The notes: a model not told the origin generated them from the letters alone. A stretch of 20,000 nt of DNA from Euglena gracilis (GCA_039621445.1 CP154954.1:43384174-43404173), one strand, 5' to 3'; positions 6,957 through 17,540 are shown, numbered from the stretch's first letter. A program made the numbers and translations.

Positions 6957-7084
6957 ATGGCGGCCCCACACGCCGCCCCGGGGGACGGCGCCTCGGAGCG
7001 GGGCTCCCCCGCCCCCGCCACGCCACCCGCACCCAGGGCGGCGCTGAAGCGCTCCGCCTCGAAGGTGGACCCCGAGTACCTGCT
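6957..7084 (+). CDS. Gene 2 exon 1 (MAAPHAAPGDGASERGSPAPATPPAPRAALKRSASKVDPEYL); start codon tentative
   Basis: GC-rich third positions; followed by a paired-end intron ggcCAG...CTGcccgc. Confidence 0.7.
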
Positions 7085-16000: not shown

Positions 16001-17540
16001 AAGAAAAAATGAACAGCTCAATATTCACACTTATGTTGCAAATGGCCAAATTTTTGAATTTTTTCCAAGTACCCTCCAGCAAAAGTACTAATTCCCAAAA
16101 CTGCAATTTTCCGCAATTTTCCGCAATTTTCCCGCAATTTCCACAATTTTCCGAGGCCTTTGATATCAATTTCCCCCTATCCATCAATGTTTTGGGTGTT
16201 CTGCCCCTTCCTCCCCACCCCTCCAGGAGACTGTGTAATCGGGTCCTTTGATTGAGTCCGCCCCAACCGCAGGTCCGCCCAACAAATTGTCCGGGTCTGG
16301 ATACTGGCTGGCCTGTCGACGTTTCCCGGGGATGGGTCTGCCAGGAGCCACAGCCCGCAATGACTCCAGGAAGTGGGGTCCGTTCTACGGGTACATGCTG
16401 GCGTTCACCTTCTTCTGGCTGATGCTGTGCATGGACAGCATCCAGGGCATGCTGGAGAGTCCCTTCCTGCTCCCCTCGCCTCCTGCGAAGCACCGCCAGT
16501 CTGCTCCGCAGGGATTCGGAGAAGCAAGAGGCACCACTGCGGTGGGGCTGTGATGAGCGAAGCTGCCAGCAGGATTCATGGCTCCGATGAAGAGTGTTAT
16601 AGGCCAACGCTTTGTGAGGCCTGCGCCGAGAGAGATGGACTGGGTTAACCTTCACCCAAAAAGTGGCAATTTTTTCGAATTTTTCTGGTCAAATATGCAT
16701 GATGCATAAACTTTTGAAAAGTTTCGATGGTTTTTGCCCAAAAAATGCTGAAACTCTCAGGGGCAAATTGACAGGTTCAATTGGCGGCAGGCCTTTGCTT
16801 AAGGGTTCGCAGTACCCCTCCCCCCCCTCCAGGCAGCTAGTCTAGTTTGGCCAATGGAAATCCTTGGGGGTGGGCGGGGGTTCGCCAGCAGGGCTAACTT
16901 ACGGAAAATTTTTCCACTGACCGGCGCGAAGCGGTTAGATTTTTTTGGACCCTCAAATGCCCATTTTTGGCTGTTTGGGGGTTTTTTGGAACAAAATCAG
17001 CAAAAAAAAAAAACACCCATTAGGCCCTCGTTTCCACCTCGGAGCGCAGCGCCAGGTCTGCACCCCTGAATCCCCCCGGGAGGGGGTCCAGCTAGTCCAT
17101 TTTTCCCAGTGTAAGAAAATGGCTAGCCAGTGGCCCCCCCCACGGAGTCCTTAAGGAATGGCCTGGTTGGCAGGGAGGGGACTGCCACCCGAGACATTGT
17201 CTCCAAACAATTCAACAATGACAGGTTTTATGATGAGGGCAGGGGGGCTTAAGAAGCCAGGGTGACTTCCACTCTGGGTAAGTTGTTTCTGGCTGCGCAG
17301 TGAACACTCTGAAGGTTTCTCTGAAGGGCCAAGACCATCAAACATGCCAACGTGCAAATTTGGCCACGTCGTTTGGATGCCCACGTCGTTTGTCGTTGAG
17401 GGCCTTTGAGACTCGTCACAAAGACCGACAAACGTTATTTGGCTCCGGGCAATAGGCGTGGGCAGTGGGGCGAGGGGTCCCCAACGTTTGGCCGCAGCAA
17501 CGCAGAGGACGACATCAACCTCGCGTCTCTCAAAGGCGTC
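6957..17540 (+). CDS. SAM-domain + bestrophin-like membrane protein, over 530 aa, at least 17 exons; join(6957..7084,7839..7926,9002..9040,9346..9442,9931..9985,10425..10458,10889..11035,11203..11246,11556..11598,12235..12336,12658..12766,13138..13288,13785..13843,14579..14763,15155..15282,16340..16468,17483..>17540); 3' end unresolved
   Basis: All 16 junctions, placed mainly from intron end-pairing, keep one open frame with GC-rich third positions. The spliced product contains a SAM-like domain (WSVEEVCTF...VDGSRLKHLLLEDWERLCPVIGPRIHLMESLKK) and bestrophin-like motifs (VVFPLSFSLNAAYQRREQAL; FEGLRVFSDYGTP; IQGMLESPF; EDDINL). Domain names come from my motif recognition, not a search. Confidence 0.75.
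7085..7838 (+). other. Nonconventional (euglenid-type) intron 1
   Basis: CT|ggcCAGGGGGCCGCC ... GGCGGTTCTCTGcccgc|G; 12-bp stem including G-U pairs; CAG at +4..6, CTG at -8..-6. Confidence 0.8.
7124..7446. mobile_element. Probable degenerate MITE inside intron 1, related to 197-514
   Basis: CACAACATCAC versus right-end reverse complement CAGAACATGAC; flanks GTCCCAGG / ATCCAGGG; shared motifs GTGACTGGCTGG and TGACTGGTTTT. Confidence 0.45.
7839..7926 (+). CDS. Gene 2 exon 2 (ALQKYIGRQERNHRQLSRKKPMPAPPAPA)
   Basis: In frame with exon 1 after removing 7085-7838. Confidence 0.72.
8169..8441. repeat. Compound (GT)n-(GCGT)n-(GT)n microsatellite in intron 2
   Basis: Seen directly. Confidence 0.97.
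9002..9040 (+). CDS. Gene 2 exon 3 (SAAAAWSVEEVCT), start of SAM domain
   Basis: W-S-V-E-E-V is the typical SAM helix-1 motif. Confidence 0.72.
9041..9345 (+). other. Nonconventional intron 3 = MITE copy (9044-9340) plus one 8-bp TSD
   Basis: GCACCTTC-CAGGCTTCTGCTT ... AAGAAGAGGCCGG-GCGCCTTC; removal restores SAM WSVEEVCTFV; homologous to the element at 16788-17165. Confidence 0.8.
9346..9442 (+). CDS. Gene 2 exon 4 (FVGASLAEAFPAEPTAAEPVVAAVRRELVDGS), SAM domain
   Basis: Strong coding bias; contains the SAM VDG motif. Confidence 0.78.
9931..9985 (+). CDS. Gene 2 exon 5 (LKHLLLEDWERLCPVIG), SAM domain
   Basis: Frame-consistent; fills the SAM L-x-x-L-x-x-E-D segment. Confidence 0.75.
10425..10458 (+). 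CDS. Gene 2 exon 6 (RIHLMESLKKV), SAM C-terminal helix
   Basis: The join gives I-G-P-R-I-H-L-M-E-S-L, matching SAM helix 5. Confidence 0.75.
10889..11035 (+). CDS. Gene 2 exon 7 (IPDTIPCNASLNQALGLVRKAAPPAAAPARAAEDWAAGSDGEAPGSPTA)
   Basis: Coding bias; both flanking introns have paired ends and pyrimidine|purine junctions. Confidence 0.72.
11036..11202 (+). other. Nonconventional intron 7
   Basis: C|gccCGGGGCTGG ... CCAGCCCCGcccac|G; perfect 9-bp stem that extends further. Confidence 0.7.
11203..11246 (+). CDS. Gene 2 exon 8 (AVAVPMPPLPAPQP)
   Basis: Defined by the paired-end introns on both sides; low-complexity linker. Confidence 0.6.
11247..11555 (+). other. Nonconventional intron 8, MITE-like with CCCCCGAT direct repeats
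   Basis: CCCCCGAT-CAGCCTTCTTTT ... AAAAGAAAGCCTG-c-CCCCCGAT. Confidence 0.65.
11556..11598 (+). CDS. Gene 2 exon 9 (MRKLLTGRSKFSAL)
   Basis: Frame-consistent between introns 8 and 9. Confidence 0.6.
12235..12336 (+). CDS. Gene 2 exon 10 (NHRLVDTAWSPDPSRHWLVQLWQILVFEVLRVSF)
   Basis: Strong coding bias; followed by intron acaCAG...CTGggcct. Confidence 0.8.
12337..12657 (+). other. Nonconventional intron 10
   Basis: C|acaCAGCGCCGTGCCA ... TGGCGCGGCGCTGggcct|G; 13-bp stem with one G-U pair; phase 0. Confidence 0.85.
12658..12766 (+). CDS. Gene 2 exon 11 (VAFIIQKFGLRLQQLPYIVAPLVLMYLCYTFKLFVE), transmembrane segment
   Basis: Coding bias and a hydrophobic helix; the 3' boundary is uncertain by 2 nt. 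Confidence 0.8.
13138..13288 (+). CDS. Gene 2 exon 12 (PATLYSIIVVFPLSFSLNAAYQRREQALQTLASIKASGLAVHLFGEVWT)
   Basis: Bestrophin-like F-x-x-N-x-A-Y-x-R segment following a transmembrane helix. Confidence 0.85.
13289..13784 (+). other. Nonconventional intron 12
   Basis: gagCAGGG ... CCCTGtgacc|G; phase 2 on both sides. Confidence 0.72.
13785..13843 (+). CDS. Gene 2 exon 13 (SQLELPDTFLVDSAYILKS)
   Basis: Both flanking introns have CAG at +4..6 and CTG at -8..-6, and their phases match. Confidence 0.75.
14007..14299. mobile_element. Foldback (long inverted repeat) element with telomere-like TTAGGG/CCCTAA units
   Basis: Arms of about 108 bp (14007-14114 and 14188-14299) are near reverse complements, e.g. 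AGTTGGATCAGGGGGTTCCAA and TTTGCGTTATTGATGGA; both ends lie in TA runs. Confidence 0.8.
14300..14480. repeat. (TA)n / (TG)n low-complexity tract
   Basis: Seen directly. Confidence 0.9.
14579..14763 (+). CDS. Gene 2 exon 14 (FRCLGHYLTATSEPDKEVIIGNIFAQFADMFYHVDLFRLSGIFPPLVTVPFNNVINMALGF)
   Basis: Strong coding bias; frame-consistent. Confidence 0.85.
14764..15154 (+). other. Nonconventional intron 14
   Basis: T|gccCTTCCT ... GGGAAGgcggc|G; the join gives GF-EGLRV. Confidence 0.8.
15155..15282 (+). CDS. Gene 2 exon 15 (EGLRVFSDYGTPCSLRTFCKVTIGAMAFCFAPLFAALCLTAT)
   Basis: E-x-L-R...T-P segment followed by a transmembrane helix, as in bestrophin-like proteins. Confidence 0.85.
15604..16178. mobile_element. 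Degenerate relative of the 5321-5847 element, inside intron 15
   Basis: GGGGGGATTAATATCTGCAATTTTTCTGCAA ... CCGCAATTTCCACAATTTTCCGAGGCCTTTGATATCAATTTCCCCCT; no TSD visible. Confidence 0.7.
16340..16468 (+). CDS. Gene 2 exon 16 (PGATARNDSRKWGPFYGYMLAFTFFWLMLCMDSIQGMLESPF)
   Basis: Transmembrane helix followed by an L-E-x-P-F motif; 5' boundary approximate. Confidence 0.83.
16469..17482 (+). other. Nonconventional intron 16
   Basis: T|gctCCCCTCGCC ... GGCGAGGGGtcccc|A; perfect 9-bp stem that extends to about 15 bp. Confidence 0.82.
16788..17165. mobile_element. hAT-like MITE nested in intron 16; same family as intron 3
   Basis: TIR CAGGCCTTTGCTTAAGG / CCTTAAGGAATGGCCTG (15/17); flanks ATTGGCGG / GTTGGCAG (6/8). 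Confidence 0.8.
17483..17540 (+). CDS. Gene 2 exon 17 (TFGRSNAEDDINLASLKGV...); 3' boundary unresolved
   Basis: Acidic D-D-I-N-L motif after LESPF; the preceding intron has a perfect 9-bp terminal stem. Confidence 0.75.

Follow-up and report, generated by a model that had tools for sequence, protein, structure and literature searches.

A 20,000-nt stretch of Euglena gracilis DNA (the window, taken at its full length) very probably contains an ordinary nuclear gene for a product of about 570 aa, from whose 18-exon transcript 17 nonconventional introns are excised. The gene was modelled on the + strand at 6957-17830, with exons of 37-185 nt, introns of 158-1099 nt, and a coding sequence (CDS) of 1,713 nt in total. 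The joined exons gave 570 codons (570 aa) in a single open frame, with one stop at the terminus. Across the full length, 459 of 573 aligned columns (80%) were identical to P0003, a protein of 563 aa from a complete open reading frame (ORF) labelled Euglena longa. Retention of an intron added an in-frame stop for 16 of the 17 introns and shifted the frame for the remaining one. The GC content at third codon positions was 0.90, and the overall GC content was 0.675 in exons versus 0.535 in introns. The window itself was GC-rich eukaryotic DNA with numerous microsatellites.

The exons were located through transcript proteins. A 61-aa open stretch at 14575-14757 matched P0001 (EG_transcript_24550, Euglena gracilis, 100%) and P0002, which came from the Euglena longa transcriptome. 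The 90% cluster of P0001 also included P0003 and P0004 (EG_transcript_33269), the latter being a second E. gracilis transcript protein (EukProt) that spanned the C-terminus. According to exact-match mapping and tblastn, ten exon blocks of P0001 and P0004 were ordered on the + strand at 11557-17827, all at 100%. Leaving aside three residues (YSP), the window matched the E. gracilis transcript proteins at 100%, over 327 residues. Homology to P0003 carried the exon series upstream as far as the ATG at 6957. The junctions of introns 9-17 were covered by P0001 and P0004 (and anchored by them for all but intron 11), and those of the N-terminal introns 1-8 were placed by homology to P0003 only. A Pfam scan of single exon translations gave 0 matches in 7, and an Rfam scan of the whole window gave 0 matches.

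The gene had been noticed earlier in a sequence-only reading, as a split gene with 16 non-GT-AG introns that ended at 17540. The split structure and the non-GT-AG borders were retained here, and the count and the end were revised. P0004 ran through exon 17 to 17573 and was followed by an intron at 17574-17785 and by exon 18, with the stop at 17828-17830; because the gene continued to 17830 with this extra intron, the introns numbered 17. Two introns of that reading were also moved. The placement 11599-12234 was 6 nt off and added two residues absent from the transcripts, and the junction KFS|NHR set it at 11593-12234, slidable by at most 2 nt. The placement 10459-10888 deleted 24 residues kept by P0003, and homology led to 10533-10893, slidable by at most 7 nt leftward. 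Its introns 9443-9930 and 9986-10424 were both among the allowed placements.

No intron of the gene had the GT/GC...AG borders of the conventional U2 type, which in E. gracilis is further marked by a GTGTG-like 5' site and a C-rich pyrimidine tract. For the transcript-covered junctions, all donor/acceptor pairs within 12 nt that gave the exact protein were enumerated. The eight transcript-anchored junctions had 2-5 protein-exact placements each, or 24 in total, and 0/24 were GT/GC-AG; one of them started with GT and ended with TT. Similarly, 0/53 of the nucleotide-equivalent placements of all 17 introns were GT/GC-AG. For the eight N-terminal junctions, all frame-preserving and stop-free pairs were scored against P0003. 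The top placements of seven of these eight were not GT/GC-AG, and the best GT/GC-AG placement was 9-19 points lower or absent. For intron 6, none of 2,189 combinations was GT/GC-AG. In the 20 nt that precede the final dinucleotide, pyrimidines made up 0.25-0.75 in the 17 introns and 0.6-0.8 in introns of the neighbouring Tctex-1 gene, a control group of only three.

Direct repeats of 1-8 nt made 13 of the 17 junctions slidable, and the junctions of introns 5, 7, 10, and 16 had no repeat. Template switching classically occurs where direct repeats are bridged by a hairpin, and the junctions could in principle be reverse-transcriptase artefacts of this kind, or hairpin-bridged DNA deletions between repeats, instead of products of splicing. 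This explanation was scarcely credible, given that the protein frame needs the introns removed and is conserved in a second euglenid, that four introns had no junction repeat, and that published knock-ins tie function and phenotype to the excision of introns of this kind (PMC12501133).

The pairing of the intron ends was evaluated as Gao et al. did, through the fold energy of 10 nt + U7 + 10 nt. The energy was below 0 in 16/17 introns, with a mean of -8.2 kcal/mol. For ends displaced by 15-150 nt the mean was -4.06 ± 0.73, and the observed mean was reached in 0/300 trials. With 24-nt arms, the mean duplex energy of cognate ends was -21.5, whereas that of displaced ends was -10.7 ± 1.2 (reached in 0/200 trials) and that of non-cognate ends was -16.0 (p = 0.001). 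The cognate mean was reached by 0/2000 partner permutations. The clear terminal stems proposed from the sequence were thus borne out by the fold check, as cognate ends paired far above displaced controls and permutations.

The position of the pairing was then compared with the published splicing code, 5'-N3CDG-/-CH'GN5-6|R, which was defined by E. gracilis knock-ins that tested motif, spacers, and helix (Nomura et al. 2025, PMC12501133). At protein-consistent placements the code was found in 6/17 introns (1, 8, 10, 12, 13, and 15), whereas displaced controls gave a mean of 0.16 introns and reached six in 0/300 trials. Five of these introns had CAG at +4..+6 with CTG at -8..-6, and one had CTG/CAG. 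Code-compliant alternatives of lower homology existed for introns 2, 6, and 7; that of intron 7 was 11036-11202 (GCC CGG...CCG CCCAC|G). When base identity was ignored, 14/17 introns had at least three consecutive pairs starting from exactly +4 and -6/-7, versus 5.8 ± 1.9 in the null, which reached 14 in 0/1000 trials. Eleven introns had at least four in-register pairs. In intron 9, the helix was in register with a C.C mismatch as the first pair, followed by eight in-register pairs (direct reading). Introns 14 and 16, which were fixed by transcripts, kept the register with CTT/AAG and CCC/GGG, respectively. The CDG/CHG motif is hence frequent and is not demanded of every nonconventional intron, since CAG-CTG makes up 31% in E. 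gracilis and the wider code reaches 61.2% in E. agilis, according to the literature (PMC12501133).

A tentative and on balance doubtful proposal is that the machinery sets its cuts by their distance from the end of the terminal helix, 3 nt at the 5' border and 5-6 nt at the 3' border, and does not read CAG/CTG as such. The in-register helix of 14/17 introns against CDG/CHG in only six is consistent with such a ruler, as is the register kept without the motif by the transcript-fixed introns 14 and 16, for which the published point mutants would predict failure (PMC12501133). If the proposal were true, the published code would be the commonest helix and not a requirement, and these two introns would be natural test cases. 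According to the literature on E. gracilis, the terminal inverted repeats would fold into a hairpin after transcription and would draw both intron borders together. A machinery distinct from the U1/U2AF-guided spliceosome may then cut 3 nt (5') and 5-6 nt (3') from the helix, usually before a purine, after which the exons would be ligated and the intron freed as a circle.

Several results weigh against the nonconventional excision of all 17 introns. All junctions were known at protein-level resolution, and the eight N-terminal ones depended on an ortholog of 80% identity. An E. gracilis protein spanning the N-terminal exons was sought and none was found; the ortholog was missed as well, and the evidence of absence is weak. 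For 10-nt ends, the difference between cognate (-8.2) and non-cognate (-7.0) pairs was not significant (Mann-Whitney p = 0.088), and this small gap is as expected if intron ends have motifs in common. The 24-nt duplex energies of the three Tctex-1 introns (-16.8 to -22.3) were within the nonconventional range; because of this overlap, energy alone cannot separate the intron classes in such GC-rich DNA. The strict published code was lacking in 11/17 introns. The transcript residues YSP were produced by no single join at 12766-13145 (0 placements), and the in-frame join gave YPA. Finally, the top homology score for intron 8 belonged to a GC-AG placement, 11233-11541 (90 versus 87 for 11247-11555). 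That option had a C at position +5, and its 3' end was rich in purines; 11247-11555 was preferred because it showed GAT-CAG...CTG-CCCCCC|G and an 8-nt repeat in addition to these defects of its competitor.

The intron 8 score bears on the possibility that the introns are really conventional GT-AG introns whose borders are masked by misplaced or slidable junctions. The sliding of 13/17 junctions on short direct repeats would permit such masking, the GC-AG placement of intron 8 scored no worse than the others, and for intron 5 there were GC-AG options that fell no more than 9 points short of the top score. Masked GT-AG borders were nevertheless judged extremely unlikely, since neither the 24 transcript-consistent nor the 53 nucleotide-equivalent placements included GT/GC-AG, and the GC-AG candidate of intron 8 had neither the G at +5 nor the C-rich pyrimidine tract of conventional E. 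gracilis introns, as these marks are given in PMC11170887.

The YSP discrepancy lies between exons 11 and 12. Both transcript proteins read ...FVE-YSP-TLYS, and the DNA gave FVE at 12757-12765 and TLYS from 13146. The six bases directly after TA, at 12768-12773, were AGCCCC, which encode Ser-Pro one base out of frame (direct reading). The simplest reading would be that a base has dropped out after 12767, either from the assembled sequence or from this allele; on that reading the intron would span 12774-13145 (GC..CG). No candidate version of intron 11 was GT-AG. A micro-exon for YSP was also tried, and its 16 candidates in C-rich sequence had no credible flanks and were rejected as chance matches. 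The mismatch could instead mean that the copy in the window is non-functional or allelic and that the matching transcripts came from another locus, as the assembled DNA cannot encode the transcript protein exactly; those transcripts would then say nothing about the splicing of this copy. Such a copy was considered very unlikely. The remaining 327 transcript residues were all at 100%, the model frame had no internal stop, and the in-register helices and code motifs were far over chance, which is not expected of a decaying copy. Moreover, because AGCCCC encodes Ser-Pro after TA, a single missing base is favoured over divergence.

The coordinates of the exons and introns of this 18-exon gene, and of the neighbouring gene, are given in Table 1.

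Table 1. Coordinates of the modelled features in the window.
Feature	Position	Strand	Remarks
Exon 1	6957..7084	+	start codon 6957; P0003 homology, model frame; end slidable to 7087
Intron 1	7085..7838	+	754 nt; GGC CAG...CTG CCCGC|G; obeys published code; 12 in-register pairs; homology-guided
Exon 2	7839..7921	+	tblastn to P0003, 96% over 28 aa
Intron 2	7922..8987	+	1066 nt; borders weakly constrained; code-compliant alternatives 7922-8984, 7928-8984
Exon 3	8988..9037	+	P0003 homology
Intron 3	9038..9342	+	305 nt; placement 9041-9345 = TTC CAG...CGG GCGCC|T, near code
Exon 4	9343..9442	+	P0003 homology
Intron 4	9443..9930	+	488 nt; GGGCCC core at each end; one of six allowed placements
Exon 5	9931..9982	+	P0003 homology
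Intron 5	9983..10421	+	439 nt; placement 9987-10425 with 8 in-register pairs GAGGTCTC/GAGGCCTC
Exon 6	10422..10532	+	24 residues encoded at 10459-10532 kept in P0003
Intron 6	10533..10893	+	361 nt; 7-nt direct repeat CCATCCC; 8 in-register pairs at 10530-10890
Exon 7	10894..11039	+	P0003 homology
Intron 7	11040..11197	+	158 nt; GGGGCTGG...CCAGCCCC; weakest homology constraint of the model
Exon 8	11198..11246	+	P0003 homology
Intron 8	11247..11555	+	309 nt; GAT CAG...CTG CCCCCC|G; 8-nt direct repeat; obeys code
Exon 9	11556..11592	+	exact to P0001 aa 1-12
Intron 9	11593..12234	+	642 nt; GCC CTGGCGTGG...CCACGTCAC GCCCC|A; transcript-anchored
Exon 10	12235..12336	+	exact to P0001
Intron 10	12337..12657	+	321 nt; ACA CAG...CTG GGCCT|G; obeys code; 13 in-register pairs
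Exon 11	12658..12767	+	exact to P0001 through 12765; 3' end uncertain
Intron 11	12768..13138	+	371 nt as modelled; alternative 12774-13145 if a base is missing after 12767
Exon 12	13139..13288	+	exact to P0001 starting at 13146
Intron 12	13289..13784	+	496 nt; GAG CAG...CTG TGACC|G; obeys code
Exon 13	13785..13843	+	exact to P0001
Intron 13	13844..14578	+	735 nt; AAC CAG...CTG ACCCC|A; obeys code; contains ~290-nt palindrome
Exon 14	14579..14763	+	185 nt; exact to P0001
Intron 14	14764..15154	+	391 nt; GCC CTTCCT...GGGAAG GCGGC|G; 6-bp in-register helix, without CDG/CHG
Exon 15	15155..15259	+	transcript protein match
Intron 15	15260..16358	+	1099 nt; GCC CTG...CAG CCCGC|A; obeys code, CTG-CAG form
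Exon 16	16359..16468	+	P0004, 100%
Intron 16	16469..17482	+	1014 nt; GCT CCCCTCGCCTC...GGGGCGAGGGG TCCCC|A; 11 in-register pairs, without CDG/CHG
Exon 17	17483..17573	+	P0004, 100%
Intron 17	17574..17785	+	212 nt; contains (AC)n run; weak terminal pairing
Exon 18	17786..17830	+	TGA stop 17828-17830; P0004 C-terminus 14/14 residues
Tctex-1 gene	1273..2748	+	CDS 1273-1389, 2366-2471, 2624-2748 (direct reading)

The predicted product of about 570 aa would carry an N-terminal region with weak likeness to SAM and, towards the C-terminus, a bestrophin-fold domain, and would resemble bestrophin-like membrane proteins. P0003 gave a sub-threshold SAM match (E = 7.5e-4, 20.1 bits, cut-off 21) and no bestrophin match in Pfam. 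When its residues ~290-535 were compared with 1.84 billion representatives, 363 relatives had E <= 0.001. Ten of these were sampled, and 8/10 matched Bestrophin_2 (PF25539) at E < 0.01, with 1/10 over the cut-off. A profile of 36 sequences found bacterial bestrophin chains among PDB sequences at E 0.04-0.1 only. In the AlphaFold model of P0003, the predicted local distance difference test (pLDDT) score was above 90 across residues ~290-510. Comparison of this model with the Klebsiella bestrophin homolog (KpBest) gave a target-normalised template modelling (TM) score of 0.64-0.70 over ~260 columns with E ~4e-5. P0002 was a 591-aa paralogue with the same SAM-like and bestrophin-like layout and with 255 of 661 aligned columns identical to the model, so the two belong to a small euglenid gene family.

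The Tctex-1 gene lies upstream, and its introns were 1390-2365 (GTGCAC..CCTTAG) and 2472-2623 (GTGCGT..TCGCAG), both GT-AG. Two of its exon translations matched PF03645 at 30.8 and 29.6 bits (cut-off 22.8), at profile positions 26-59 and 61-95, which were contiguous. A GTGAGT...TGCAG interval was present at 1166-1227, 5' of the Tctex-1 start codon. The conventional neighbour described in the sequence-only reading was thereby confirmed, and because Tctex-1 is spliced conventionally, both splicing systems act on adjacent genes. The sequence 5' of the start codon of the 18-exon gene (6800-6956) had a long C-rich tract ending in CTCCTCCAG at ~6898-6906, followed by a short upstream ORF, ATGATGCCGCGGCGCTGA. 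The arrangement, as read directly from the sequence, resembles the acceptor of an outron in spliced-leader trans-splicing. At 1191-1241, before the Tctex-1 coding region, there was a C-rich stretch similar to this one (73% over 51 nt).

Repeats were present inside and outside the introns. A blastn self-comparison for a mobile element shared among the 17 introns gave none significant. A 31-nt family, CAGGCTTCTGCTTAAGGGTTCGCAG.ACCCC, was seen at 9044-9074, 16788-16818, 11250-11280, and 3082-3112, and was not significant by the same self-comparison. The 16788 copy was 90% identical to that at 9044, and the remaining two were 68% identical to it. Introns 3 and 8 each had a copy whose first base coincided with that of their CAG; a third copy was within intron 16, and the fourth was intergenic. 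The family may represent one end of a dispersed element. In a MAFFT alignment of four regions the mean column identity was 49%, giving no support for a shared element beyond the 31-nt family. The self-comparison returned only an unrelated inverted pair of dispersed repeats, 3081-3302 and 19703-19846 (88% over pieces of 60-69 nt), which lay outside both genes. Intron 13 contained a near-palindrome at 14007-14299 (~290 nt), with arms at 14043-14143 and 14159-14259 (79% complementary), outer arms at 14007-14046 and 14260-14299 (83%), and TTAGGG/CCCTAA-like repeats near its centre. In intron 2, 274 nt (8169-8442) were taken up by a (GT)n/(GCGT)n array, and the (AC)n run of intron 17 was at 17616-17684; the two were complementary over ~126 nt at 79%, which is probably trivial. 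Arrays with the 10-nt unit TCCGCAATTT were found at 5344-5463 and 5749-5813 (intergenic) and at 16103-16153 (intron 15).

The nonconventional introns of this gene are already known biology and belong to the majority intron class of E. gracilis. In the census of Gao et al. 2024, 16,151/28,337 introns were nonconventional (PMC11170887). In the RNA-based set of Dataset S6, which covers 39,233 genes with a total of 413,446 introns, 62,894/72,771 non-slidable introns were nonconventional and 19,403 were CAG-CTG (PMC12501133). At 86% per intron, and with independence assumed, simple arithmetic gives 17/17 nonconventional introns by chance in ~8% of such genes. The interest that the sequence-only reading attached to the locus is therefore overstated. 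Its assignment to the structure-defined introns of euglenids agreed with the absence of GT/GC-AG borders, the paired termini, the junction repeats (13/17), and the code motifs (6/17). Its view that such genes are invisible to GT-AG-based annotation was also upheld, as the older reference annotation held only 541/32,825 nonconventional among non-slidable introns (PMC12501133 Dataset S6). Its statement that the excision mechanism is unresolved now applies to the trans-acting machinery only (PMC12501133). The cis code was dissected in 2025, and the excised introns are reported to be circles and not lariats and to be removed after the conventional introns (PMC11282704; PMC12501133 Discussion).

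The value of the locus is mainly in annotation. Gene finders based on GT-AG and ORF scans miss most Euglena genes, and the locus is a clean worked example, with a corrected model of 18 exons for a protein of predicted SAM-like and bestrophin-fold regions. Furthermore, introns 9, 14, 16, and 17 are natural introns removed without the published CDG/CHG motif, and they bear on what the machinery recognises.

The nonconventional introns of the euglenid genes tubA, tubB, and gapC, studied by Milanowski et al. in 2014 and 2016, reportedly have variable borders and terminal pairing that brings their ends together. Conventional, intermediate, and nonconventional introns occur side by side in those genes, whereas all 17 introns appear nonconventional here. 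In bulge-helix-bulge introns, which are processed by the tRNA splicing endonuclease, the cut sites are also measured from a helix and the intron may leave as a circle; the likeness to the present introns would be a functional analogy only. To our knowledge, no enzyme has been linked to the nonconventional introns of Euglena. Unlike the introners derived from miniature inverted-repeat transposable elements (MITEs), as these are described in PMC11282704, the 17 introns had no significant element in common and only the weak 31-nt family in introns 3 and 8; the terminal inverted repeats and the junction repeats resembling target-site duplications were similar. With respect to the code as given in PMC12501133, the introns differed in that CDG/CHG was absent at any protein-consistent placement in 11/17, that the first pair of intron 9 was mismatched, and that introns 14 and 16 kept the register with CTT/AAG and CCC/GGG. 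They resembled the introns of that study in their non-GT-AG borders, in the helix from +4 and -6/-7, in their slidable junctions, and in CAG/CTG or CTG/CAG in 6/17, with a purine as the first base of the following exon at each of the six junctions that obey the code. The CAG-CTG share of 5/17 was near the 19,403/62,894 of the species (PMC12501133). Compared with the census of Gao et al., nothing truly different was seen: the lengths of 158-1099 nt were inside the reported range, and the fold energy was below 0 in 16/17 introns here versus ~97% of nonconventional and ~65% of GT-AG introns there (PMC11170887).

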